DNA of 64,000 bases from Spirochaetia bacterium. Lineage in GTDB: Bacteria; Spirochaetota; Spirochaetia; SZUA-6; Bin103. Within the stretch, counting starts at the first letter, position 1; each line of letters starts with the position of its first letter. The notes beneath the pieces were generated by a model, which made no database searches, had not been told where the DNA came from, and saw only the letters and a program-made list of their open reading frames with translations. The stretch lies in NCBI GenBank assembly GCA_965198005.1, contig CBDAOI010000002.1, positions 832,001 through 896,000 on the forward strand. The letters run 5' to 3'. Below are positions 9,368-64,000 of the stretch, one piece after another. The position numbers and the translations under genes are program-made.

Positions 9368-9719
9368 ATGGCTGACCACTCCCTTGCGACTCAGATCGGC
9401 AACCGGGTGACCCTGACCGGGCACTTCGACGTGCCGGTGGTCCTGGAGGATGTACGGCCCCTGGGCGCGAACGGGTCGGCCGGATACGAGTGCCGCGTCC
9501 GCTTGCCGGACGGCGCGCTTGAAGAGGCGGTCATCTCTCCCGACGAAGCTCTGGCGATTCTCGGCACGGAAGAGAAGGCCGCGGCGAGACCCGCAGACGC
9601 GGAGCGCGTGCGTCTGCTGATAGAGTCCGCCCGTATCCGTCTGGCCTACGCCTACGACCGCCAGTTCGCGGTCAGCCTTTCCGGAATCCGCACGCTGCCG
9701 CACCAGATCGAAGCGGTCT
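9368..9719 (+). pseudogene. N-terminal 117 codons of an SNF2-DUF3883 helicase (paralog of 57026..60571)
   Basis: 13 substitutions in 117 aa versus the intact copy by manual count; homology stops at HQIEAV. Confidence 0.92.
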
Positions 9720-9843
9720 TTCTGCGCGTCGATTACGGAGACGCCATGCTGGTCGAGGTCGTAGTCCATGGCATGCGCCACCGCATACACGATCAGGTAA
9801 TCGGCTTGCCCTTCGACAATCAGCCAGCGCTCCGCGAAAAAGA
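9720..9843 (-). pseudogene. Inverted fragment of the OLD nuclease TOPRIM domain
   Basis: Minus strand reads FFAERWLIVEGQADYLIVYAVAHAMDYDLDQHGVSVIDAQ, matching about 63080-63203 on the plus strand. Confidence 0.92.
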
Positions 9844-10220
9844 ACAACGGTAACCCGGCTACCTTCGCAGCATTGGCGCGGGCGCTGGACATTCCCTGGC
9901 TGGCAGTGTTCGATGGCGACACCGTGGGGCAAGGATTCGTTCAAGCCATCGAAAACCGAGGATTCGATGCAGCCGAATCAATGGAACGCTGTCGCACCCA
10001 TCCGGACGGCGATCTGGAGACGCAGCTCGTCGCCGACGGACTTGGAGCGGAGTTGCGTGAGACTTTGGCGGCGGTCGGTATTCAGCATGCGCGTTTGCGG
10101 GACAATAAGACTACCTATGCAGCGGCGTTCGCGGCACGGATTCGTGGCGACACCGAATTGGCGCAACGCACGCCGGAGGCGTTCCGAGCTGCCGTCAAAC
10201 AACTGCGGGGATTGGTGTGA
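9841..10220 (+). pseudogene. C-terminal remnant of the OLD nuclease (paralog of 61693..63609)
   Basis: NNGNPATFAALARALDIPWLAVFDGD...EAFRAAVKQLRGLV; also lacks about 10 aa present in the intact copy. Confidence 0.92.
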
Positions 10221-12139
10221 TGGCGAGCCATCTCGAGACCACCTTGCAAGAACTATCGGACATTCAGCGGAAGGCCGTGGAGTGGGACAACGGCCCTCTA
10301 CTCGTGCTGGCCGGTCCCGGTTCCGGCAAGACCCGCGTGCTCACTTGTCGGGTCGCCCGCCTGCTGCATCGATCGCCAGACGAGCGCTTCCGCGTTCTGG
10401 CGCTGACGTTCGCCACCAAGGCCGCCCACGAGATGGCGAGCCGCGTGACCACCCTTGCGCCCGGGCTCGAAGAACGCGCAGACATCCACACCTTCCACAG
10501 CTTCTGCGCACAGGTCCTGCGCCAGCATGGCGTGCATCTCGGCATCAAGCCCGACTTCGCGATCTACTCCCGGACATCCGACCGACAAGCCGTGTTGGAC
10601 GATGCCCTCGGGCGCGACTCCCACCATGTCGAGCGCGCGGACCGCCGGCTGTTGCCGCTGATCGACACCCTGAAGGCCCGGCTGGTCGGCCCGGAACAAG
10701 CTGAAAAGAGGGTTACCGAAAGGAACAACGCGTCGCCCGATGCAGCCTGCCGCGTGGCCCACGCTTACCGCCTGTACGAGGACGAACTTCGCCGCGCCAA
10801 CGCATTGGACTTCAACTCGCTCATATTCAAGGCGTACGAACTCTTCGCGTATCCGGCGATGGCCCGCCATTATCAGACAGTGTACCGGTACTGGATCATT
10901 GACGAATTCCAGGACACGAACGGCGCCCAATACGAGATTCTGCGGCGCATGGCAGGCGCGAACTTTCGCCAGATCTTCGCCGTGGCCGACGACGACCAGA
11001 CCATCTACGAGTGGAATGGCGCCAACGTCCGGCGGATCAGTACCCTGGTGGACAACTTCGCCTGTGAAGTCGTGCAACTGCCAACCAACTACCGCTGCCC
11101 GCCGCGCATCGTGGAGGCGGCCAATCGTCTCGTCGTGTACAATGCCCGGCGCGCCGAGTCGAAACGCCCGGCACAAGCGGCGCAGCGGAGTCGTTCTCTC
11201 GACAACCAGCAGATTCGGTGCCGCGTGTTCGAGACATGTGCGGACGAAGTACAGGGCATTGCCGGCGAGATTGCCTGTGTCGATGTCGCCGCACGCGGCC
11301 AGACGCTGGTGCTGTGCAGGACCCGGGCACTACTGGAGTTGATGGGGCAAGCCCTGCAAGCTAAGCGTGTCCCGGCGACGATTCTGGTGCGCCGCGACGA
11401 CTTTACGTCGCCCAAGATGAGGTGGCTGGTCGCCTGCCTCAAGCAGATCAACCGGCCGCTCGACCGGCGCAACATGGCCACGGTGGCCGAGACGTTTGGC
11501 AGCTTCGCGCCTGTCCCCCTGGACTTCGACGAGCTGTTGTCCCGGTCGGCGGTGGAGGATATGACGTACCTGTCGGTATGGACGAATGCAGCACGCCAAG
11601 CCGGGTTGCCGTCGCCCGCCGCGGAGATCGTCGACCTGGTTGCGGGTCTCGCCAGCGGAGACCTGAACCTCGCATCGGCAGCCGAGAATATCCTCAGTCA
11701 CTTCGAAAGCGATGAGTCCGACGAAGACCTCAAGGACGACCTCAGCGCGTGGCGCAGGTTGTGGGGTGAAATCATATCTGCTGTTGGGCCAACGTCGCTC
11801 GACCGATTTCTTCAGGAGCTGGAGCTACGCTCCAAGGAACCCGTTTCGACACCGGGAGCGGTCTCCCTCGCAACCATTCACGGCGCCAAGGGCCTGGAGT
11901 TTGACACCGTCTACTTGATCGGCATGGCGGAGGAGGTTCTGCCGTCCTGGCACAGTGTCATGCAGAGTAACGGCAGCGCCGCGCTGGAAGAGGAACGCCG
12001 CAACTGCTTCGTTGCCATCACCCGAACGAAGAAGCGCCTGATCCTGTCGCGGGCGCGGCAGTACAAGGGATGGCTGAAACGGCCGTCGCGCTTTCTCGCG
12101 GAAATGGGCTTGCTAAACGACCACCACCATGCGCAGTGA
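10217..12139 (+). CDS. UvrD/PcrA-family helicase (GajB-like partner of the OLD nuclease)
   Basis: AGPGSGKT, DEFQD, DDDQTIY, NYR, TIHGAKGLEF, EERR.CFVAITR; GTGA overlap with the OLD remnant. Confidence 0.9.
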   Translation: MMASHLETTLQELSDIQRKAVEWDNGPLLVLAGPGSGKTRVLTCRVARLLHRSPDERFRVLALTFATKAAHEMASRVTTLAPGLEERADIHTFHSFCAQVLRQHGVHLGIKPDFAIYSRTSDRQAVLDDALGRDSHHVERADRRLLPLIDTLKARLVGPEQAEKRVTERNNASPDAACRVAHAYRLYEDELRRANALDFNSLIFKAYELFAYPAMARHYQTVYRYWIIDEFQDTNGAQYEILRRMAGANFRQIFAVADDDQTIYEWNGANVRRISTLVDNFACEVVQLPTNYRCPPRIVEAANRLVVYNARRAESKRPAQAAQRSRSLDNQQIRCRVFETCADEVQGIAGEIACVDVAARGQTLVLCRTRALLELMGQALQAKRVPATILVRRDDFTSPKMRWLVACLKQINRPLDRRNMATVAETFGSFAPVPLDFDELLSRSAVEDMTYLSVWTNAARQAGLPSPAAEIVDLVAGLASGDLNLASAAENILSHFESDESDEDLKDDLSAWRRLWGEIISAVGPTSLDRFLQELELRSKEPVSTPGAVSLATIHGAKGLEFDTVYLIGMAEEVLPSWHSVMQSNGSAALEEERRNCFVAITRTKKRLILSRARQYKGWLKRPSRFLAEMGLLNDHHHAQ

Positions 12140-12155
12140 GGGGAAGAGGTCCGTT

Positions 12156-12345
12156 GTGACGACCGATGACTGCCGACTGATTGAGGACTACCTGCCGCTG
12201 AACGTGCTCAACGCTATTGCGGGGAGGGAGAAGAAGCATCCGAAACGGTACGTGGAGTTGGTTCACTACTGGCCGGCGCGCCGCCCGATTACTGCCTGCC
12301 GGGCCGCCATCTATGCCGCGCTGTCGGCGGCGCCTCGCACGGAGT
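12156..12345 (+). pseudogene. N-terminal remnant of a DUF1156-type adenine DNA methyltransferase
   Basis: RLIEDYLP...REK...VHYWPARRPITACRAAIYAAL fits the DUF1156 RLIE/REK/H.W.ARRP pattern, then breaks off. Confidence 0.75.
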
Positions 12346-14134: not shown

Positions 14135-14376
14135 CTGGCCTGCGGGGGCTGTGGGGGCAGTTCGACGAGTGGGTGCGTGCGCTGGCGGACACCGGCGACC
14201 TGTATCGCCCGCTGGCTTGGCCGCCCGCGCATGCTTATCGGTTCCTGCAGAGCGTGCCGGAGCTGGAGCAAAGCGGGCTGTCGGTACGGGTGCCCAACTG
14301 GTGGCGCAAGCGGTCGCGGCCACAGGTGTCGGTCACGATCGGCACGCAGATGCCGGCGTGGGTGGGTGCCGATGCT
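14135..14376 (+). pseudogene. Shard(s) of a SWIM-associated type SNF2 helicase
   Basis: LAW.P.HAYRFLQSVPELEQSGLSVRVPNWW.KR.RPQVSVTIG resembles the region preceding the ATPase in these helicases. Confidence 0.5.
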
Positions 14377-35592: not shown

Positions 35593-36975
35593 TCACAGCT
35601 CGACCGTGACGGTGACGGTCGCCTGCGGCGGCGGCGCAGGGCGGGAGTCCGCGGTGGACAGCGCGAGTTCCGCCAGGCGCAGGCGAAACCGGAAGCCGGG
35701 GCGGCGCGCAGCGGCCTCCAGCGCCGCGGTGATGTGCGCGCCGGCCGTGGTCACCGTGGCCTTCAGCGCCAGCGACGCCACCTTGACCTGCCCCACGAAC
35801 TGCAGTTCGCCGCGGCCGGTGACGTCGCGCCAGGTTGCGCCCAGGCCCAGGTGCGGCCCGTCCAGCTCGGCACGCAGGGTCAGCTCCGGTTGCGCCGGTT
35901 GCGCGCCGTCCAGCTCCAGCCGGGTGGCGGCGCGCAGCGACCACGGCCCCCACGGAACCTCCTGGGCGAGGCTGAGCACCGCGCTCCGCCGCGGCTCGGG
36001 GACGGGGGGCAACGGCGCCGCGGCCAACTCCTCTCCCCGTACCGACACCCCGTAGGTGGCGCGCCCCCAGGACGGTGCCGCCGTGCCGCGCAGGCGGGCG
36101 CCCCACACCAGCGGCGCGCTCGGCGATGTTCCCGCCAGGCCGAAAAAGCCGCGATGCGCCGCCGCCACCATCGCCGCCAGCTCGGCCGGCCCCAGTTCGG
36201 CGCGCGCGGCGACCCGGACGTGGGCGCCGTGCAGGTAGGCGCGGGCCGGGGAGGCGCCCCGCGGGGCGCCGGCGGAGAGGTTGCCGCTCACCCGCAACGA
36301 CACCGGGCCGGCGGCGCCGAGCGCCACCCGGGCGCCCGCCAGGTAGAGCGGGCCGCCGGGGAAGGGAACGGCCGCCAGCCGCCACGACTGCGCCACCGCG
36401 GGCGGCGCCGGCGACCGCAGCGCGGCGTACACCTCGCCGTCGGCCAGCGCCGGCGCGCTCCAGGCCGCAACCAATCCCGCCACCAGCGGAGACTGCGCGC
36501 GGCCGGGACCGCCGAGCTCATCGGCGAAAGCGGCCACGGCAACACCGGCAATCGGGGTGAGCTGCAGCCCCCGGCGCCGGCCGGGATCGAGCCCGGCATC
36601 GAGCCGCAGGCCGGTCGGTTCCGCAAACACGGCGCTGCCCGCGCTGAACCCGAGCGGGTCGCTCAGCTCACGCCAGGCACCCGCGACGGTAACCGGACCG
36701 ATGACGCCCCGTGGCGTGGTCAGCCCGACGGTTACCTCCGGCGGCTCGGGGGCGCCGTGGTCGCGGGTCCAGGCCGCGCGTGCCACCGCCCGGCCCCAGT
36801 CGCCGGCGACCAGCCAGCGTTTGGTGAGCGCCAAGCCCTGTCCATCGGCTTCGGCGCGGGTGGTCAGCTCCAGCTTGCCGTGCGGCGCTGCCTCGGCGTC
36901 GCCGGACGGCGGTGCCAGAGCCGTCATGATCAACAGTCCCACCACCGTCCAGCGCGCTCGCGATCGTTCCTGCAT
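35593..36975 (-). CDS. Exported hypothetical protein, possibly an outer-membrane beta-barrel
   Basis: Signal peptide, alternating amphipathic strands, terminal ATVTVTVEL; very GC-rich, so the frame call is less secure. Confidence 0.55.
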   Translation of the reverse strand: MQERSRARWTVVGLLIMTALAPPSGDAEAAPHGKLELTTRAEADGQGLALTKRWLVAGDWGRAVARAAWTRDHGAPEPPEVTVGLTTPRGVIGPVTVAGAWRELSDPLGFSAGSAVFAEPTGLRLDAGLDPGRRRGLQLTPIAGVAVAAFADELGGPGRAQSPLVAGLVAAWSAPALADGEVYAALRSPAPPAVAQSWRLAAVPFPGGPLYLAGARVALGAAGPVSLRVSGNLSAGAPRGASPARAYLHGAHVRVAARAELGPAELAAMVAAAHRGFFGLAGTSPSAPLVWGARLRGTAAPSWGRATYGVSVRGEELAAAPLPPVPEPRRSAVLSLAQEVPWGPWSLRAATRLELDGAQPAQPELTLRAELDGPHLGLGATWRDVTGRGELQFVGQVKVASLALKATVTTAGAHITAALEAAARRPGFRFRLRLAELALSTADSRPAPPPQATVTVTVEL

Positions 36976-37153
36976 ACCGCCCGTATTGCAAGATCGGTGC
37001 CAGGTGGTGCCGGCAATGCGCGCCCGCGCGCCGGTCTCCGGCCCCGGGCTTTACGTTGATTTACGATTTACGTTCCGATTCAGCCGACGAGGCCGGCGAG
37101 CCGGCGAGGTCGCCGGCAGCCGCCGGGCGCCGGTTCGTGGCACAATAGGCGGC

Positions 37154-37708
37154 ATGCACACCTTTCTCGACGGCCGCCTGGCGGTACGCCGCGGCGACCT
37201 CACCGACTTCGGCGGCGAGACGCCGAGCGCGATCGTGAATGCCGCGAACCGCTCGCTGCTGGGCGGGGGCGGGGTCGACGGCGCCATCCATCGGCGCGGC
37301 GGCCCGGCCATCCTGGAACAGTGCCGGGAGCTGCGCCGCACCCGCTTCCCCGACGGACTGCCTACCGGAGAGGCGGTGCTGACCACCGCCGGGCGGCTGC
37401 CCGTCGACCACGTGATCCACACGGTCGGACCGGTGTGGCAGGGCGGCGCGGCGGGCGAGCCGGAGTTGCTGCGCGCCGCGTACCGCAACAGCCTGCTGCT
37501 GGCCGCCGAGCACGGGCTGGCGGAGATCGCGTTTCCGGCAATCTCCACCGGGGTGTTCGGCTACCCGGCGGCTCCGGCGGCGCGCGCGGCGTACCAGGTG
37601 ATCGAACGGTTCTGCACCGAGCACGCCACGCCGCGCCGCGTACACCTGATCTTCTTCAGCGACGGGGACGTGCGCACCTTCCTGGAGGCCACCGCTCCGG
37701 ACGCATGA
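37154..37708 (+). CDS. Macro domain protein (O-acetyl-ADP-ribose deacetylase, YmdB-like)
   Basis: GDLT, IVNAAN.SLLGGGGVDGAIH, VIHTVGPVW, AFPAISTGVFGYP. Confidence 0.93.
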   Translation: MHTFLDGRLAVRRGDLTDFGGETPSAIVNAANRSLLGGGGVDGAIHRRGGPAILEQCRELRRTRFPDGLPTGEAVLTTAGRLPVDHVIHTVGPVWQGGAAGEPELLRAAYRNSLLLAAEHGLAEIAFPAISTGVFGYPAAPAARAAYQVIERFCTEHATPRRVHLIFFSDGDVRTFLEATAPDA

Positions 37709-45297: not shown

Positions 45298-46458
45298 TCA
45301 CGCGAGCCCCAACTCCTGCAAGGCCGCGCGCCAGTGCAGGCACAGCACACCGTCGATCTGCATCCGCGCCGGATCCCTGCTGATGCACAGGGCCAGCGGC
45401 CGGGCGAAGTCACCCGTGAACCCCGCCAGTCCGCGCGCGTCGCGCTCGTCGATGCGGTCGGATGACTTGATCTCGACCAGCACCACCGGCATGCCGGGCC
45501 GGTCGATCACCAGATCGATCTCGACCCCGCCTCCGGTCCGCAGATAGAACAGCCGCCAGTCCGGGTATCGGTACCTCGAAAGGTGCAGAATCTGGGTGAT
45601 GACGAAGTGTTCGAACGCCTTGCCGAACTCGTAGGTCCCGGAGCGCAGCGGCACCTCGAGCGTCCGTTCCAGGGACCGTTTGACGCCGACGTCGAAGTAG
45701 TAGAACTTCGGATTGGCACGTTGCTGCTTCCGGATCGAGCGGTGATAGGCGGGCAGGTGAAAGCCCACCAGCGTGTCTTCCAGGATGCCGAAATAGGAAA
45801 CGATGGTCTTGGGATCCGCTCCCACGTCGCGGGCGATGTTAGCGTAGTTGATGATGGTGCCGCTCGACTGCGCCGCTACCTCGAGGAACTCCCGGAACGG
45901 ATCGAGCCGTCTGATGATCTGTTCGGCGACAATCTCCTCCTTCAGATAGGTGAGCGCATACGCGCGAAGGTACGCGTGTTTCTCCTCTCTGCCTGCCAGC
46001 GAGTAGAGCTTCGGCAACGTTCCCCAGTGCAGCGCGTCCTCGAGCACGAATGCGTTCTGCAGCTCCGGCACGGTCAGCGGGTAGAGGTTGTACACGAACG
46101 CCCGGCCCGCCAGCAGATTGGACGCCCCGCGCCTGAGCTTCCTGCCGCTCGATCCGGTAAGCACGAACCGCTTGCCGGTGCTTTCGATCAGCCGATGGAC
46201 CACGTCCAGGAGCCGAGGCGCGCGCTGCACCTCGTCGATCAGAATCCACTCCACCGATCCGGGCAGCGCTCTGACCTCACTCTCCAGCCGGCCCGGGCGC
46301 CTCCGATAGCGATCCTCCACCTCCGGGTCCAGCAGGTCCACGCACAACGACGCGTCCGGATCGAACGCTTCCCCGATGTAGGTGGTCTTGCCGGTGCCGC
46401 GCGCGCCGAACAGAAAGAACGAGTTGCTGCGGCTGACCTGCAGCAGCCGGCGGAACAT
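45298..46458 (-). CDS. AAA_14 ATPase with a DUF4143 C-terminal nuclease-like domain
   Basis: GARGTGKT, IDEVQ, LTGSS, LAGRA, KFYYFDVG, EIDLVI...VEIK. Confidence 0.9.
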   Translation of the reverse strand: MFRRLLQVSRSNSFFLFGARGTGKTTYIGEAFDPDASLCVDLLDPEVEDRYRRRPGRLESEVRALPGSVEWILIDEVQRAPRLLDVVHRLIESTGKRFVLTGSSGRKLRRGASNLLAGRAFVYNLYPLTVPELQNAFVLEDALHWGTLPKLYSLAGREEKHAYLRAYALTYLKEEIVAEQIIRRLDPFREFLEVAAQSSGTIINYANIARDVGADPKTIVSYFGILEDTLVGFHLPAYHRSIRKQQRANPKFYYFDVGVKRSLERTLEVPLRSGTYEFGKAFEHFVITQILHLSRYRYPDWRLFYLRTGGGVEIDLVIDRPGMPVVLVEIKSSDRIDERDARGLAGFTGDFARPLALCISRDPARMQIDGVLCLHWRAALQELGLA

Positions 46459-56803: not shown

Positions 56804-57033
56804 ATGGCTTCTGACGAATCCTGAGTCGGTATGGCAGGATGTAGCTACCCACCTGCAGGTGTCGAAGAAACGGTCTACCGATGGGTCGATGCGAGGGGCC
56901 TACCGGCGCATCGGAGCTGTTGCGATTCAGGCTCTCACAGGTGGACGAATGGGTCCAAGACAGCCGCGCCAGCCGGACGATCGGCCATCGGGCGAGGCGG
57001 AAAAACAACGGAGACGATCGAGAGAATGGCTGA
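56804..57033 (+). pseudogene. Excisionase-like HTH regulator, inactivated by a stop and frameshifts
   Basis: GGAGG RBS; MASDES*V / QDVATHLQVS / ETVYRWVDARGLPAHR / LLRFRLSQVDEWVQ; stop overlaps the SNF2 ATG. Confidence 0.75.
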
Positions 57034-60000
57034 GCATCCCCTTTCAACGAAGATCGGCAACCGGGTGTCCCTGACGGGCCACTTTGACGTGCCGGTCATC
57101 TTGGAGGATGCACGACCCTTGGGGACGAATGGGTCGGCGGGTTACGAGTGCCGCGTTCGCCTGCCCGACGGGGCGCTCGAGGAGGCGGTCATCTCGCCCG
57201 ACGAGGCCGCCGCGATTCTTGGCGCACAAGAAAAATGCGCGGCCCGGCCCGCGGACGCGGAACGATTGCGACTCCTGATCGAATCCGCCCGCATTCGCCT
57301 CGCCTACGCCTACGACCGGCAGTTTGCGGTCAGCCTGTCCGGTATCCGCACGCTGCCACACCAGATCGAGGCAGTCTACCTGAAGATGCTGCCCCAGCCG
57401 CGTCTGCGATTCCTGCTCGCCGACGACCCCGGCGCCGGCAAGACGATCATGGCCGGCCTCCTGATCAAGGAACTCAAGCTGCGGGAGGCAATCGACCGCT
57501 GTCTGATCCTCGTCCCGGCGCCCTTGACGATTCAGTGGCAGGACGAGCTGCTTCGCTTCTTCAACGAGCCGTTTCAGATCATCCACTCCGCCAATGACCA
57601 GCAGCAGCTTCTGAATCTCTGGGAACGGGAATCCCAAGTCGTCTCATCTTTGGACTATGCCAAGCAGGACGAGGTCCGCGAGCGCGTGTGGCAGCAGCGA
57701 TGGGACCTCATCATCATCGACGAAGCCCACAAGTGCAGCGCCTATACGAAGCGCTCAGCGGGGCGCGACGACGAAGTCGAGCGCACGAAGCGCTATCAAC
57801 TCGCCGAGCGTCTCTCCGAGCAGTGCGACAACCTGCTCCTTCTGACCGCGACCCCCCATCACGGCGACGACGACCGGTTCGCCCACTTCATACGACTGCT
57901 CGACCGCGATCTGTTCCCCGAGCCGCACCGCTTCAGCGAGGCAGCCGGTCGCCTGCGGCGGGATATTCTGAAGCTCGGAGAGGATTGCCCCTGGTCGCTC
58001 CGGCGCCTGAAGGAAGACATGAAGGACATGCGCGGCCGCCGGCTGTTTCCAGACCGCCACGTGCAGACCGTCAGCTTCAACCTCGGGCCGGAGGAGTACA
58101 CCATCTACAAGGCCGTCACGGCGTACATCAACGAGTACTTGCCGCAGTCGACGGGGCGCCGGAAGAACAGCGTGGCGCTTGCGCGCACCGTCTTCCAGCG
58201 ACGTCTGGCAAGTTCGACGCACGCGATTCACGAATCCCTGCGTCGCCGGCGGAAGAAGCTGGACGATCTCCTCCGCGAGCTTGAAGAGCTTTCTCCGTTC
58301 CAGCGGTCGAGGCGGCTTGCACAAATGCAAGGTCGATTGTCGGACACCGAGCAGGACGAAGACGACCTCGACGAGGCGGCCCGGGACGAGCTGATCGACG
58401 AAGCGACGACTACGGCAGAACTGGACCAGATCCGCGCCGAACTGGCGGAGTTGGCCGATCTGGTGGCCCGCGTCGGCCGGGTCCGGGAGAGCGGCCGCGA
58501 CTCGAAGCTGGTCGCCCTGCGCGAGTGCGTACGGCGGTCGGAGTTCGAGGAACTGAAGGACGGACGGGGCAAGCTCCTCATCTTCACCGAGCATCGAGAC
58601 ACGCTCAACCACCTTCGCGAGCATCTGGAGGCGTGGGGTTACTCGACCTGCCAGATCCACGGCGGGATGAATCCGCGCGAACGCAAGCAGGCGCAGGAGG
58701 AGTTTCGGACCAGCCGCCAGATTTGCGTGGCGACCGAGGCGGCCGGCGAAGGCATCAATCTCCAGTTCTGCCACCTGATGATCAATTACGACCTGCCCTG
58801 GAATCCGACCCGCCTCGAACAGCGCCTGGGCCGCATCCACCGCATCGGTCAGTCACGCGACGTGTATGCGTTCAACTTCGTGGCGACTTCGTCGGAGGAT
58901 GGCCAGCCGGTCATCGAAGGGCGCATCCTCGAACGACTCCTGAGCAAGCTGGATCGTATGCGGGAAGCGCTTGGAGACCGGGTGTTCGACGTGGTCGGCG
59001 AAGTGCTTTCCCTAAACAAGGTCAATCTGCCGGACATGCTCCGAGAGGTCGCCTACGAACCGAGGCGGCTGGACGAGTACCTCGACGTGATCGAACAGAT
59101 CGACCCCGATCTGCTCGGCCGCTACGAAGCGGCGACCGGCATCGCCCTGGCGCGAGGGCACGTGGATTTCAGCGCGTTCGCCCAGGCCAATCTGGCGGCC
59201 GAGGAGCGGCGGCTCATGCCGCGCTACGTCCAGTCCCACTTCCTGAGCGCCGCCAAGGCGGTGGGCCTGCGTACGGAAGCGCGCGCCGACGGGCTGTGGC
59301 GCATCGAGCACGTGCGCGCCGATTTGCGCTCCGAGCGTCTCGACGCCGTGCGACGCATCGGCAAGCCCGACGCGAGCTACCGCAAGCTCACGTTTTACAA
59401 GGAGCACCTAGAGCAGGATCAACACCTGGATGCCGTGCTCCTGGGTCCCGGCCATCCGCTCTACGCCGCCGCCGATGAGAAGCTGAGGGAACTCCTGCAC
59501 GACATTGTGGGGCAGACCGCCGTCTACGTGGATCCGATGACCGAGGTCCCCTACCGGCTCCACTTCTTCGAAATCTCGGTGCGCGGCCAGACCGCCAAGG
59601 GCGAAGCGGCCACCATTCATGCCGAGCTCGTGGCCGTCCGCGAGGAAGTCGGCGATGGCGTGGCGATCGCCAGTCGTTTCGCCATAGTTCCGGCCGACGT
59701 GTTGATCGACCTGCCGGCGCACCCGCACCCGCCGGAGACGCTTCCCGAGATCGAATACGGTCCAGTCCGCGACTACGTCAAGACGACCCTGCAGATGGAC
59801 CGCCGGCACAATGCGCAGCGCGAGCGCGGCCGGTACGCCGACGTGGCGCGCGACTACCTCGAGCAGTCCTTCGAGGCACGAGTTCGGGCTGCGCGGGATC
59901 GGGTGATGGCGCTGCGCGCCCGCGAGCCGAGGGAACCGGAGGTGGCCCTGGCGCGGCAGCGGGCGGAGAACGACCTGGCCGATCTCGACCGCACCCGACA

Positions 60001-60571
60001 GGAACGCATCGCCGGTGTCGACCGGCTACGCGTGGCCCGCCACGGCCCGCTACGCCACGTGGCGAGTTGCGTGGTGTTGCCGCCGGACACGGCGGTGGAC
60101 AGCTTCCCGGAGCTGGCGGAAGAGTTGGATGCCGCGCTCAAGCGGCGCATCGAGCTCGCCGCCGAGGACATCGCGGTGGCCTACGAAGAGGCCCGGGGCC
60201 GCGAGTGCGAACGGGTCGGCCACCTCAAGATCGGCTTCGACATCCGCAGCCTCGCGCCGGCCGACCCGCAGACCGGATACTTCGATCCGGTAGCCGGCGT
60301 GCGCCGCATCGAGGTCAAGGGCCGGCGGCGCGGCCGGCCGGTCAGGCTGACCACCAACGAGTGGTATAAGGCGCAGCAGCTCGGCGACTCCTATTGGCTC
60401 TACGTGGTCTGGGACCCGCTCGACCACCCGGATGCGGTTCCGCTCATGATCCGCAACCCCGCCAAGCACCTGGACTACGCCAAGAAGGAGGTGGTGGCCG
60501 CCCGCTACTACGACGTACCGGCCCGCGCCGTCGAACGGGCGGCACGCGAGCAGCGGGGGCAGCCTCGGTGA
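57026..60571 (+). CDS. SNF2-family helicase with a C-terminal DUF3883 (PD-D/ExK-type) nuclease domain, 1181 aa
   Basis: LADDPGAGKT, DEAH, LTATP, GEGINLQ, PWNP.RLEQR.GRIHRIGQ; GFDIRS...IEVKG...LT.NEW...YWLYVV; start supported by the paralog at 9368. Confidence 0.92.
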   Translation: MAEHPLSTKIGNRVSLTGHFDVPVILEDARPLGTNGSAGYECRVRLPDGALEEAVISPDEAAAILGAQEKCAARPADAERLRLLIESARIRLAYAYDRQFAVSLSGIRTLPHQIEAVYLKMLPQPRLRFLLADDPGAGKTIMAGLLIKELKLREAIDRCLILVPAPLTIQWQDELLRFFNEPFQIIHSANDQQQLLNLWERESQVVSSLDYAKQDEVRERVWQQRWDLIIIDEAHKCSAYTKRSAGRDDEVERTKRYQLAERLSEQCDNLLLLTATPHHGDDDRFAHFIRLLDRDLFPEPHRFSEAAGRLRRDILKLGEDCPWSLRRLKEDMKDMRGRRLFPDRHVQTVSFNLGPEEYTIYKAVTAYINEYLPQSTGRRKNSVALARTVFQRRLASSTHAIHESLRRRRKKLDDLLRELEELSPFQRSRRLAQMQGRLSDTEQDEDDLDEAARDELIDEATTTAELDQIRAELAELADLVARVGRVRESGRDSKLVALRECVRRSEFEELKDGRGKLLIFTEHRDTLNHLREHLEAWGYSTCQIHGGMNPRERKQAQEEFRTSRQICVATEAAGEGINLQFCHLMINYDLPWNPTRLEQRLGRIHRIGQSRDVYAFNFVATSSEDGQPVIEGRILERLLSKLDRMREALGDRVFDVVGEVLSLNKVNLPDMLREVAYEPRRLDEYLDVIEQIDPDLLGRYEAATGIALARGHVDFSAFAQANLAAEERRLMPRYVQSHFLSAAKAVGLRTEARADGLWRIEHVRADLRSERLDAVRRIGKPDASYRKLTFYKEHLEQDQHLDAVLLGPGHPLYAAADEKLRELLHDIVGQTAVYVDPMTEVPYRLHFFEISVRGQTAKGEAATIHAELVAVREEVGDGVAIASRFAIVPADVLIDLPAHPHPPETLPEIEYGPVRDYVKTTLQMDRRHNAQRERGRYADVARDYLEQSFEARVRAARDRVMALRAREPREPEVALARQRAENDLADLDRTRQERIAGVDRLRVARHGPLRHVASCVVLPPDTAVDSFPELAEELDAALKRRIELAAEDIAVAYEEARGRECERVGHLKIGFDIRSLAPADPQTGYFDPVAGVRRIEVKGRRRGRPVRLTTNEWYKAQQLGDSYWLYVVWDPLDHPDAVPLMIRNPAKHLDYAKKEVVAARYYDVPARAVERAAREQRGQPR

Positions 60572-60662
60572 TTTGCGCACAAAGACAAAGATTCAGCTCC
60601 AATACCATGCGCTCTGTCACAGCCGCTCGCACGACACTGATCAAGGGAGAAGGAGAACACTG

Positions 60663-61646
60663 ATGCCCGCAAATGTGGAATCCATGGCTTACCATGGTGG
60701 TAAACCTTGGCACGGCTTGGGAACGCAGGTACCCCACAGAGTCACCGCCAAGGAGATGATCAAGGCCGCCGGGCTCGACTGGCAGGTGCAGTTGCGTCCG
60801 GCGAGAGGCTCGCGGAAGATCAACAAGAAGGGAGACGTATCTCGCTATGAAATCGTGCGTCTTCCACGTCCGAACAGTCAAGAGGAGGAAGCCCTGTTTG
60901 GTGTGGTGAGCCGGCGCTATCAGCCCCTGCAGAACAGCGAAGCTTTTGCTTTCTTCGATCCCGTAATCGATAGTAAGAGAGCGCACTTCGAGACGGCGGG
61001 CGCACTCGGTGAGGGTGAAAGGATATGGGTCTTGGCCAAGATTCCCGGCACCATGGAAATCGTCCCGGGCGACGAGTGTCACAAGTACCTGCTACTGTCG
61101 AATACTCACACTGGCGAAGGTTCGGTAGTCGTGAAGTTCACGTCGATCCGCGTAGTCTGTGAGAACACGCTGATGTTGTCGATGGAGGATGGACAACACG
61201 CATATCGGGTACGACACTCCAAGATGATGCAATTCAGGTTGGATGAGTTGTCGAATTTCCTCGCAGTAGTTACACAGGTATACGAACGCGCCGAAGCGGA
61301 GTTGCGCAGATTGGCGGAAGTTCAAGTCACGGATGCCCGACTCAGGGAATATTTCGACGCGGTGTTCCCCAGGACTCGCAAGCAGAAGGCCGACAATAAG
61401 GATCCCGTGCGCTGGGGGCATGTTCGGGAGCTCTTCGATAGCAGCACCGATCTGCAATTGAACGGTGTCAAGGGAACGCTTTGGGCAGCGTACAACGCGA
61501 TCACGAGATTCGAAGACTACAAGCGTCCGATGGAGGACGAGATTCAAGACCGAAGGCTGGGGCGGATCTGGTTCGGTTCCGGTGCCGATGTCAAGTTGCG
61601 AGCGCTGCAAAAGGCATCCACGTTCGCGGAAAGCTGGCGCAATTGA
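60663..61646 (+). CDS. DUF932-like phage/plasmid-type protein
   Basis: MPANVESM.Y....PWHGLG, AGLDW.V, Y.PLQN..AF.FFD, ETAG.L..G, LL.N.H.G, IRVVC.NTL, GT.WAAYNAIT; AGGAG RBS. Confidence 0.85.
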   Translation: MPANVESMAYHGGKPWHGLGTQVPHRVTAKEMIKAAGLDWQVQLRPARGSRKINKKGDVSRYEIVRLPRPNSQEEEALFGVVSRRYQPLQNSEAFAFFDPVIDSKRAHFETAGALGEGERIWVLAKIPGTMEIVPGDECHKYLLLSNTHTGEGSVVVKFTSIRVVCENTLMLSMEDGQHAYRVRHSKMMQFRLDELSNFLAVVTQVYERAEAELRRLAEVQVTDARLREYFDAVFPRTRKQKADNKDPVRWGHVRELFDSSTDLQLNGVKGTLWAAYNAITRFEDYKRPMEDEIQDRRLGRIWFGSGADVKLRALQKASTFAESWRN

Positions 61647-61692
61647 TCCGGACGACGGCGGATAGTAGCAGGAGCGCCGAGGATCGTCGCCA

Positions 61693-63609
61693 ATGCGCAT
61701 AACCCGGATCGAGATTCAGAACTTCCGATCGATCCGCCACTTGGTGGTCGATCTCGGGAAGACGACGGTGTTCGTCGGCCCCAACAACGCCGGCAAGACG
61801 GCGATTCTCGACGCGCTGCGGATCGCCCTGACCCGCCGCTGGGGACAGCGCGGGACGGGATTCAGCGAGTACGACGTCCACCTTGCGGATGACGCGGCCG
61901 ATCCGAAGGCCTCCGGCGGCGTGAGCATCGAGCTGCGCTCCGAGGAGTCCGCTCCACAAGAGTGGTCGGACGCCATCACCGAGGATCTCGGGGACATCGT
62001 ACAACTGGACCTGAATACCGGTCGCCGGTCCATCACCCTGAGAACCCGGTGCGCGTGGAGCGAGGAGAGCGGCGCCTTCGAGCCAAGCTGGGAATTCCTC
62101 GACGCCAGGCGCGAACCACTCGTCGGGAGCAGCGCCCGGCGCATCAACCTCGAACGCTTCTGGCGCTATCTACCGGCGTTCTATCTCGGCGCGCTGCGGA
62201 ACGCGGGCGACGAGTTTTCGCCGCGGTCTTCGCAGTTCTGGACAGGGCTGCTCAAGGCGTTGGAAATCCCCGCCGGCCTCGAATCCCGGGCGTTGCGGGT
62301 GCTCGACCTGCTCAACCGCCGTCTGCTGAAAGCCGACCCGCGCCTAGGAGACATTGCCGCGACAATCTCGGGCGCTACGAGAATCGCGGCGCGGGATAGG
62401 GACGGCAGCCTGGACCTGCGGATGGTGCCGCTCAAGATGTGGGATCTGCTGTCCAAGGCCGAGATCATCCTGCGCAACGAGCCGGATTCCCCTTGGTTGC
62501 CGCTCCTGCGCCAGGGGCAGGGCATTCAGAGCCTGTCCGTCATTTTCCTGTTCCAGGCGTTCGTCGATCATCTGTTGGGGGAGTTGTACGAGCCCGGTAG
62601 CGAGCCGGTGCTCGCCCTGGAGGAACCGGAGACGCACCTCCATCCCCAGGCGGTACGCACGCTGTGGCGGCATATCAGCGCGTTGCCCGGTCAGAAGATC
62701 GTCACCACCCACTCGCCGTACTTCGTCCAGCACGTGCCGTTCCGGGACTTGCGGCTGGTACGGCTTACGGCGAACGGGACCGAAGTTCGCTCGCTTCCGG
62801 CCAGTTTTTCGACCACAATTCCGGCGCTCGATGGACTGGAAGCGGTGGTGGTGAAATCGGAGGCGCGACTGAGCTACGAACGCGTACCCGAGACCCTCAC
62901 CGTTCACGGCGCGCTCGACGAGACGACCTACCGCGCCCTACTCGCCGGCTGCGGCGGACACGAGAACCGCGCCGATCTCGAACAGAAGTTGCGGGACTTG
63001 CGGAACCGCTCGTCCCATTACATCGACGACGACGAGCTACGGTCTCTCGAAACCTACGCCCGGCGAATGCGCGGAGAGATTTTCTTCGCCGAGCGCTGGC
63101 TCATCGTCGAAGGCCAGGCCGACTACTTGATCGTGCACGCAGTGGCGAACGCGCTGGGTTACGACCTGGACGAACACGGTGTGTCCGTCATCGACGCCCA
63201 AAACAACGGCAACCCGACAACCTTCGCGGTGCTTGCCCGCGCGCTCGACATTCCCTGGCTGGCGGTGTTCGATGGTGATGAAGCCGGGCAGCGCTACGTT
63301 GAGGCCATCCGCAAGCGGGGATTCGCCATCGGCGAGATTGACCGCCGGTGTCGAACCCATCCCGCCGGCGACCTGGAGGCGCAGCTCTTGAACGACGGCC
63401 TCGGCCCGGAGTTGAGGGATACGCTGGCGGCGTTGGGCATCCACGATGCGGCCAAGCTGGATGACCAAGCCCTTTTGAGTCGATTGCGGGACAACAAGAC
63501 CGCCTACGCCGCGGCTCTCGCGGCCCACCTCCGCGATGACCCCGGTCTGGCGCAACGGGCGCCCGAAGCGTTCCGGGCCGCCATCGAGCAACTGCGGGGG
63601 TTGACGTGA
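61693..63609 (+). CDS. OLD-family ABC ATPase-TOPRIM nuclease (GajA-like)
   Basis: NFRSI, GPNNAGKT, GQGIQS, EEPETHLHPQ, TTHSP; TOPRIM IVEG.AD and FDGD. Confidence 0.9.
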   Translation: MRITRIEIQNFRSIRHLVVDLGKTTVFVGPNNAGKTAILDALRIALTRRWGQRGTGFSEYDVHLADDAADPKASGGVSIELRSEESAPQEWSDAITEDLGDIVQLDLNTGRRSITLRTRCAWSEESGAFEPSWEFLDARREPLVGSSARRINLERFWRYLPAFYLGALRNAGDEFSPRSSQFWTGLLKALEIPAGLESRALRVLDLLNRRLLKADPRLGDIAATISGATRIAARDRDGSLDLRMVPLKMWDLLSKAEIILRNEPDSPWLPLLRQGQGIQSLSVIFLFQAFVDHLLGELYEPGSEPVLALEEPETHLHPQAVRTLWRHISALPGQKIVTTHSPYFVQHVPFRDLRLVRLTANGTEVRSLPASFSTTIPALDGLEAVVVKSEARLSYERVPETLTVHGALDETTYRALLAGCGGHENRADLEQKLRDLRNRSSHYIDDDELRSLETYARRMRGEIFFAERWLIVEGQADYLIVHAVANALGYDLDEHGVSVIDAQNNGNPTTFAVLARALDIPWLAVFDGDEAGQRYVEAIRKRGFAIGEIDRRCRTHPAGDLEAQLLNDGLGPELRDTLAALGIHDAAKLDDQALLSRLRDNKTAYAAALAAHLRDDPGLAQRAPEAFRAAIEQLRGLT

Positions 63610-64000
63610 TCGACACTCCACTCGAAACGAGCTTGCACGAATTGACCGACATCCAGCGGCGCGCCGTGGAGTGGGACGATGGCCCCCTGCTCGTATTGGC
63701 CGGCCCCGGCTCGGGCAAGACCCGCGTGCTTACCTGCCGGGTCGCACGCCTGCTGGAAGCCTCGCGCGAGCAGCGCTTTCGCATTCTGGCTCTGACGTTT
63801 ACGACCAAGGCGGCGCATGAAATGGCGAATCGGGTGACCGCCTTGGCGCCCGGCCTCGAAGGACGGGCGAACATCGTCACCTTCCACGGATTCTGCGCCC
63901 AAGTCTTGCGGCAGCACGGCGTGCATCTCGGAATCAAGCCGAACTTTGCCATCTACTCGCGGACCTCGGATCGACAGGCCGTGTTGGAAGATGCCATCGG
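63606..64000 (+). CDS. UvrD-family helicase (GajB-like), runs off window end
   Basis: GTGA overlap with OLD; LTDIQRRAV...LVLAGPGSGKTRVL, LTFTTKAA.EM, TFHGFC; paralog of 10217..12139. Confidence 0.9.
   Translation, partial: MIDTPLETSLHELTDIQRRAVEWDDGPLLVLAGPGSGKTRVLTCRVARLLEASREQRFRILALTFTTKAAHEMANRVTALAPGLEGRANIVTFHGFCAQVLRQHGVHLGIKPNFAIYSRTSDRQAVLEDAI

Follow-up and report, generated by a model that had tools for sequence, protein, structure and literature searches.

We analyzed a locus at the 3' end of a 64,000-nucleotide stretch of DNA from a Spirochaetia bacterium (hereafter the window; positions 832001-896000 of contig C2 in a genome of 4.9 Mb and 66% GC), following the DNA to 20 kb beyond the window end. 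Judged by its genes, the locus is very probably an anti-phage system of the helicase-methylase-ATPase (Hma) type that carries a class 2 OLD nuclease and a UvrD/PcrA-type helicase (gajA and gajB) in the known cargo slot between hmaA and hmaB, plus a separate DUF932 gene. An earlier reading of the same DNA, the original prediction, had described a Gabija-like OLD and UvrD pair inside an SNF2-DUF3883/DUF1156/DUF499 restriction-like system, had expected the DUF1156 and DUF499 genes beyond position 64000, and had rated the whole a candidate undescribed system. This composite was borne out, its gene order, strand and domain calls were right, and the two expected genes lie just past the window end (all by Pfam and PADLOC). 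It is not an undescribed system: the frame is the operon named Hma by Payne et al., 2021 (PMC8565338), and its cargo slot has been published (bioRxiv 10.1101/2024.01.29.577857; PMC11232893). All genes of the row lie on the forward strand; coordinates above 64000 are extrapolated window positions, and positions in our locus file L001 equal the window position minus 56000:

56804..57033, + strand: relic of a small excisionase-type helix-turn-helix (HTH) gene (direct reading; Pfam HTH_17, weak)
57026..60571, + strand: hmaA, SNF2 helicase with C-terminal NOV_C/DUF3883 PD-(D/E)xK nuclease, 1181 aa (Pfam, PADLOC)
60572..61678, + strand: low-GC insert of ~1.1 kb in the hmaA-gajA spacer (GC, homology break)
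60663-61646, + strand: DUF932/TIGR03299 gene within the insert, 327 aa (Pfam 3.4e-51; NCBIfam TIGR03299 2.7e-76)
61693..63609, + strand: gajA, OLD-family ABC ATPase with TOPRIM nuclease, 638 aa (Pfam, PADLOC PDLC00062)
63606..64000, + strand: first 131 codons of gajB, whole gene 63606-65543 (L001:7606-9543) (Pfam, PADLOC)
65540-68353 (L001:9540-12353), + strand: hmaB, DUF1156 methylase, 937 aa, DPPY at residue 517
68350-71256 (L001:12350-15256), + strand: hmaC, DUF499 ATPase, 968 aa
71300-73261 (L001:15300-17261), + strand: single-gene OLD-family ABC ATPase directly after hmaC, 653 aa, GC 0.53

The three frame proteins match the PADLOC profiles HmaA (4.8e-186), HmaB (2.2e-104) and HmaC (2.1e-94), and in this check, which the original prediction had called for, all five core proteins (these three, GajA and GajB) match nearly end to end. 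Pfam finds SNF2-rel_dom, Helicase_C and NOV_C (1.3e-14) in HmaA, DUF1156/N6_N4_Mtase in HmaB and DUF499 in HmaC. HmaA carries GAGKT at residue 136, DEAH at 232 and the nuclease motif D1072...E1096-x-K1098, and thereby the Snf2 helicase and C-terminal NOV_C PD-(D/E)xK nuclease with D...ExK that characterize Hma (PMC11232893). Its open reading frame ends at 60571 and offers starts at 56831 and 57026, the latter backed by tblastn alignments that begin at residue 1 in related loci. As PADLOC defines Hma, HmaA, HmaB and HmaC occur once each, on the forward strand and in open frames. Three genes (DUF932, gajA and gajB) are embedded between hmaA and hmaB and none between hmaB and hmaC, within the threshold of <=3 embedded genes between neighboring hma genes (Payne et al., 2024). 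Two other systems were compared: the DrmD model of DISARM gives 343 bits vs a cut-off of 610 (NCBIfam), and PADLOC finds no DrmA, DrmB or DrmC gene in the row; for BREX proper, which has PglZ and BrxC, no locus protein matches PglZ and HmaC reaches only 5.4e-4 with BrxC (PADLOC). The likeness to Hma covers the three core genes, their order, strand and domains (with the DPPY of HmaB), the hmaA-hmaB cargo slot and the nearby integrases, and we found no differences in the frame.

Inside this frame, GajA matches its PADLOC profile (PDLC00062) at 8e-248 over positions 1-637 of 639, and Pfam AAA_15/AAA_21 and OLD-like_TOPRIM (1-67 of 67); it carries the Walker A motif GPNNAGKT at residue 29, EEPE at 310 and the TOPRIM motif E...DGD at 527. 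GajB, a UvrD/PcrA/Rep-type SF1 helicase of 645 aa with GSGKT at residue 35 and DEFQ at 229, matches its PADLOC profile at 1.2e-221 and PcrA (1pjr) at 1.3e-70 over 620 residues. An ABC ATPase and TOPRIM in one protein with a UvrD-like helicase gene directly downstream, the hallmarks of Gabija, are both present. The solved structures nearest to GajA by sequence are the OLD nuclease 6p74 (3.9e-21) and the class 2 C-terminal structures 6nk8 (2e-7) and 6njv (3e-6). Class 2 OLD nucleases are defined by tandem UvrD/PcrA/Rep-like helicase genes, and this tandem order is found here; by sequence, the pair counts as Gabija when that term is taken broadly, as in PADLOC, and more narrowly as a class 2 OLD pair. 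Gabija of Bacillus cereus VD045 (8sm3, 8j4t, 8jq9) likewise has an OLD-type ABC ATPase-TOPRIM protein followed by an overlapping UvrD-like helicase gene, but GajB is ~494 aa there and a 645-aa full PcrA/UvrD-like helicase here. GajA and GajB of Gabija form a supramolecular complex, and the system acts by nucleotide-sensing nicking. The class 2 OLD nucleases of Burkholderia pseudomallei (6nk8) and Xanthomonas campestris (6njv) share the TOPRIM region and the tandem helicase; they were reportedly studied as isolated nucleases, with embedding in Hma outside that work. The coupling claimed for the OLD and UvrD genes is real, as the UvrD start at 63606 overlaps the OLD stop by 4 nt (GTGA). Equal 4-nt start/stop overlaps join gajB to hmaB and hmaB to hmaC (ATGA in both), and these three junctions point to co-transcription of the genes from gajA to hmaC.

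A GajA scan with one genome per species returned 56 loci from many phyla (61-84% protein identity), which we sorted by tblastn with the window proteins. Eleven of them are fully nested, with a full HmaA and a full HmaB or HmaC around GajAB; these complete loci span at least three phyla and keep the same order at 71-88% protein identity. Eight are partly nested, namely L003, which ends at a contig edge, L010, L011, L013, L030, L053 and L054, which are fragments, and L045, which has only a divergent DUF1156 gene. Four more (L012, L025, L046 and L057) show, at a looser threshold, Hma scars exactly at the Gabija borders. The nested order is thus not confined to this lineage; such a confinement would have told against the original prediction. 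Its idea that the OLD homologs are consistently nested holds in part: Hma genes or scars flank Gabija in 23 of the 56 loci, but at 33 of the 56 there is no Hma trace in the flank examined. In the GajA tree (49 rows; L018, L030, L037, L053, L054, L055, L056 and L057 were left out because they gave no single clean alignment), one clade comprises 16 rows without Hma genes, among which L025 carries short Hma scars. The other comprises 33 rows and takes in every one of the 17 nested rows, which are mixed with 16 free-standing rows; the starred branches of the tree force at least six changes. Elsewhere, hsdM and hsdS of a type I system enclose the pair (L019, 7299-15424), a type I methylase gene directly precedes it (L021, 6247-8727), and type IIG or type I fusion enzymes are its neighbors (L026 and L046). 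Its presence in the type I restriction loci L019 and L021 indicates that the cassette is not tied to the cargo slots of a single methylation-based system.

The frame is equally varied in what it carries. The genome has seven DUF499 matches, eight DUF1156 matches (seven full-length genes and the stub in the copy B remnant described below) and three full-length HmaA genes, with DUF499/DUF1156 sites besides this locus at C2:670-680 kb and at C4:45-58, 570-592, 1198-1214, 1263-1269 and 2055-2078 kb. Three of the seven DUF499/DUF1156 pairs come with a full HmaA and are Hma loci; the remaining four have other SNF2-type helicase matches nearby and may be other BREX-related subtypes. The two further Hma loci, both complete, are:

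C4:2055233-2077486 (L131, L132): HmaA, then three unknown open reading frames, a type II methylase, an RmrA-like gene and a DRT8 reverse transcriptase, then HmaB, then Ppl, a weak pAgo-like match and a 174-aa gene, then HmaC
C4:1198273-1213588 (L133): HmaA, then Avs2 (1478 aa, GC3 0.47), then HmaB, then a 101-aa gene, then HmaC

Three Hma frames with three different cargos point to exchangeable passengers rather than to a dedicated two-layer machine.

Co-divergence was measured on the nine nested loci in which all five proteins are clean and full length; three others (L004, L027 and L049) were dropped, as one protein is split or outside the flank. Pairwise distances of HmaA, GajA, GajB and HmaC are correlated (Mantel r 0.66-0.84, p<=0.0008; HmaA-GajA 0.74, HmaA-GajB 0.71, HmaA-HmaC 0.84, GajA-GajB 0.72), but HmaB correlates with none of the other four (r -0.16 to 0.05). 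There are two HmaB types (type 1 in the window and L009, type 2 in L016 and L002), with 68-81% identity inside each and 42-48% (~44%) from one to the other; they are least alike at roughly residues 160-500, ahead of DPPY, and the sister composites L009 and L016 differ in type. Because HmaA, GajA, GajB and HmaC co-diverge and HmaB does not, the block travels together and recombination replaces its methylase allele; this allele swapping inside co-diverging composites looks like specificity switching. Here the locus family does depart from Hma as described, since two such allele types in co-diverging composites are not stated in the accessible parts of the published Hma accounts. The co-divergence, the overlapping start and stop codons and the conserved order across several phyla could also be read as signs of an undescribed five- or six-gene system that is obligately integrated, with OLD/UvrD as its dedicated effector arm and parts that are inactive alone. 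We consider this highly improbable: physical linkage by itself would also make the block co-diverge, at the 33 loci above this Gabija clade is intact without Hma in the examined flank, it occupies the type I and fusion-enzyme loci as well, the three Hma loci of this one genome hold three cargos, and published counts give 554 of 1,485 Hma systems without an embedded gene, against 931 with embedded genes, 22.8% being known defence systems (bioRxiv 10.1101/2024.01.29.577857).

We instead favor separable layers, an Hma system with a passenger. From homologues, we infer that HmaB would mark host DNA by N6/N4 methylation, that HmaC, an ORC/STAND-like ATPase, would scan or sense, and that HmaA would translocate and nick unmarked invader DNA with its PD-(D/E)xK domain. 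The OLD/UvrD pair would act as a self-contained second layer, its ATP-regulated TOPRIM nuclease and partner helicase damaging DNA or aborting infection. The composite is inherited and transferred as one block, with its cargo exchangeable and its methylase allele swapped by recombination. In published work, anti-T4 defence by Hma required the HmaA nuclease domain, HmaA was tested in Halomonas meridiana, and the interval between hmaA and hmaBC was described as a hotspot of defence-gene insertion (Liu et al., 2024; PMC11232893).

Some observations weigh against this reading. HmaC gave no match to a simple Walker A pattern, and the DUF932 insert between hmaA and the rest could alter expression of the operon. 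The B. cereus proteins are remote: phmmer aligns 66 residues of GajA (E 4e-4) and ~108 of GajB (1e-14); with such distant kinship to the only biochemically studied Gabija, the mechanism of the pair at this locus may differ. HmaB overexpression had no effect on T4 escape (Liu et al., PMC11232893), which leaves a methylation-based self/non-self step unproven for Hma.

The layers might also communicate. OLD/UvrD could be silenced by Hma or sense its inhibition, as PrrC does in EcoprrI, and fire when a phage anti-restriction protein blocks Hma. A backup nuclease of this kind, which the original prediction had put forward, is already in print for OLD-type modules: a 2024 preprint discusses embedded PARIS or Gabija triggered when the phage inhibits the host system (bioRxiv 10.1101/2024.01.29.577857), and a 2026 Nucleic Acids Research (NAR) paper, in which Hma is renamed a Type-1 DUF499-centred BREX-related system, reports from at least 1,242 taxa that BREX and BREX-related loci hold OLD-ABC/TOPRIM modules, which it calls 'backup suicidal effectors' (PMC12839542). 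Embedded second layers have precedents in PrrC inside EcoprrI, a type Ic restriction-modification system, and BrxU inside the pEFER BREX (bioRxiv 10.1101/2024.01.29.577857), both of which resemble our locus in placing a self-contained nuclease module between methylation-system genes in the same orientation. The tight co-transcription signals and the co-inheritance are consistent with such a guard, but free-standing relatives show that the pair is also kept without Hma, and the guard relation has been shown for PrrC only. We regard this coupling as a tentative possibility.

The original prediction drew much of its case for a stable two-layer unit from a second, diverged copy at 9.4-12.3 kb of the window (copy B, the locus above being copy A). 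The two copies do not amount to a replicated unit. Copy B proved to be the wreck of a different lineage, its DNA 74-82% identical to that of copy A, and it consists of:

9368..9719, + strand: 5' stub of hmaA, first 117 codons (352 nt) (blastn 82% to 57026-57377; PADLOC 8.5e-10)
9720..9841, - strand: 122-nt inverted piece of gajA, TOPRIM region (blastn to 63203-63082; OLD-like_TOPRIM match)
9843..10220, + strand: 3' remnant of gajA, last ~136 codons (blastn)
10217..12139, + strand: intact gajB, 640 aa (Pfam; PADLOC GajB 1.5e-222)
12129..12343, + strand: 5' stub of hmaB, ~200 nt, DUF1156 zinc-ribbon region (Pfam DUF1156 1.8e-11)

DUF932 is absent, and the two GajB proteins share 72% amino acid identity (BLASTP). 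The DUF1156 start that had been noted after UvrD is there, its position 12129 overlapping the UvrD stop at 12139, but in a copy that is a remnant, and homology stops at 12343, where a thiamine-pyrophosphate enzyme gene follows. Compared with intact relatives, the 122-nt gajA piece has been inverted in place, and we found no inverted repeat at the junction within copy B. GajB of copy B clusters with L007 and L057 (support 100; 89% identity) and that of copy A with L006; no flank synteny joins copy B to L007 and L057, its nearest relatives. Copy-B-type DNA occurs at 87-91% nucleotide identity in three genomes of the same genus, where decay took different courses: in G407 the pair is intact and Hma is missing, G401 has an internal deletion in gajA and a 30-codon hmaA scar, and G406 an internal deletion in gajB. 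The grouping of its GajB and these differently decayed copies mark copy B as the older, decaying Hma::Gabija lineage of the genus and copy A as a separate acquisition. Just after the thiamine-pyrophosphate enzyme gene, window positions 14203-14356 match PF12419 (DUF3670, 'SNF2 helicase protein') at 1.1e-10, and this may be another helicase fragment of the same decayed patch.

Copy A has a decayed gene at its 5' border. The HTH relic is scattered across three frames, equivalent to two frameshifts (read by eye), and its middle piece gives a sub-threshold Pfam HTH_17 match (E 0.017, 16 residues). The TGA of its last frame overlaps the hmaA ATG through the ATGGCTGA overlap at 57026-57033. The claim of a dead HTH gene coupled to SNF2 therefore keeps its overlap, but at this E value the HTH identity is weakly supported; no intact HTH orthologue was detected 5' of hmaA in 14 related loci. 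That copy A as a whole is, like copy B, a decaying relic without current function is in our view very unlikely. The dead HTH would fit, as would the mobile-element debris downstream (amidase and IS66 fragments, three tandem tyrosine recombinases, and IS1595 and rve transposase genes) and the frequent decay of the composite in relatives (L010, L011, L013, L030, L053, L054, copy B, G401 and G406), but hmaA, DUF932, gajA, gajB, hmaB and hmaC are all full length and free of frameshifts, their catalytic motifs are intact and their lengths equal those of relatives, and DUF932 retains 29 of 29 family-invariant residues (30-sequence alignment).

DUF932 is the only feature of the locus that is not common to any relative, and the sole copy in the genome. 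The insert that holds it has a GC of 0.56, vs 0.64-0.69 in its neighbors, and homology to other nested loci ends at 60557 and restarts at 61679; in those loci the hmaA-gajA spacer is ~20 to 120 nt, mostly 20-45 nt. The gene starts at ATG 60663 with its own GGAGAAGGAG ribosome site. No DUF932 gene occurs at any of the 56 related GajA loci (tblastn), and no close relative was found in 400 other genomes of the phylum at E<=1e-90. The insert carries a separately acquired single DUF932 gene just ahead of the Gabija pair.

Its protein belongs to a tight subfamily of ~326 aa, in which the best 120 matches have 61-72% identity; matches in plasmid and phage records are all below 60% (~29-34% among the matches listed). 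Of 27 metagenomic relatives, four are close (L059, L060, L061 and L079; 65-69% identity), and all four have a GmrSD-like gene directly 5' of DUF932, three of which match PADLOC Orf5/HEC-06 and that of L060 weakly HEC-05 (3.7e-12). The two of these four with downstream sequence continue into PglZ (1e-291 and 0) and then BrxL. A relative at 39% identity (L073) comes after HmaB...HmaC, and three at 39-40% lie beside a ligase and sliding clamp in mobile-element contexts, L067 also with a Rep protein. This recurrence raises the possibility, which we hold with reserve, that the subfamily is a defence or defence-regulating gene moving through cargo slots of methylation-based systems, usually as 3' partner of a GmrSD-type type IV enzyme inside BREX and here alone in Hma before Gabija. 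The protein matches no model in PADLOC v2.0.0. Its AF2 model is good (pLDDT 85.6), and Foldseek found no match in the PDB at E<=0.001, a PDB sequence profile search gave nothing credible, and the best wide VIA-align score (Z 7.0) is within the range common for unrelated folds. The matches in BFVD are 43 phage proteins, all uncharacterised and DUF932-like, and the PHROGs match is phrog_1221, a family of unknown function. A preprint reports that phage exposure of Variovorax selected for mutations in DUF932, and among the titles and abstract openings from a full-text literature search for 'DUF932' none concerned a defence system. In L059, a distinct GajA-type OLD ATPase-TOPRIM gene (L059:6808-8523; PADLOC PDLC04168, 6.9e-169) stands right after brxL, so that this BREX frame, too, has an OLD module joined to it.

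The 653-aa OLD-family ATPase behind hmaC has homologues at 65-66% identity at the equivalent position in L009 and L016, and a fragment in L030; Pfam found no TOPRIM in it and a DxD pattern had no match either, so that its last ~140 residues carry no domain assignment. It may regularly accompany this Hma clade. Upstream of the row lie enolase and a VanZ-like gene (Pfam). The three tandem, overlapping tyrosine-recombinase genes downstream (L086:3788-7003, ~11-14 kb past the window end) encode 411, 338 and 394 aa and have the IS66 and amidase fragments and the IS1595 and rve genes on their flanks. We take theirs to be the layout of a 'recombinase in trio' element. No attachment-site repeats above 13 nt were found between the left border of the island and the 12 kb to its right (blastn-short), and no tRNA at the island borders. 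In an empty-site comparison with congeners enolase was the sole syntenic gene, which leaves the limits of the island undefined. The 47 kb between copies A and B are mostly housekeeping genes (ThrRS, SecDF, YajC, GroEL, CysRS and a Mur ligase), amid which lie an AAA_14/DUF4143 ATPase gene (window 45298-46458, - strand) and a macro-domain gene (window 36557-37708, + strand).

Overall, the locus mainly confirms published ideas, that Hma is a landing pad for other defence systems and that OLD-type nucleases are common cargo. What it adds is modest: the genes of the block co-diverge, its methylase allele gets replaced, the copies in the genus form a decay series, and one DUF932 subfamily turns up repeatedly in BREX and Hma. 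The Hma::Gabija composite diverges together and crosses between phyla as a single block, and its two natural HmaB alleles (~44% identity) make it possible to test whether specificity is set by HmaB. Through the DUF932 subfamily that recurs in BREX and Hma, a very common phage and plasmid protein becomes testable in a defence setting. Seven DUF499/DUF1156 pairs in a 4.9-Mb genome are an unusually heavy load of one system family, and a genome with three differently loaded Hma loci is a compact natural system in which to study embedding.

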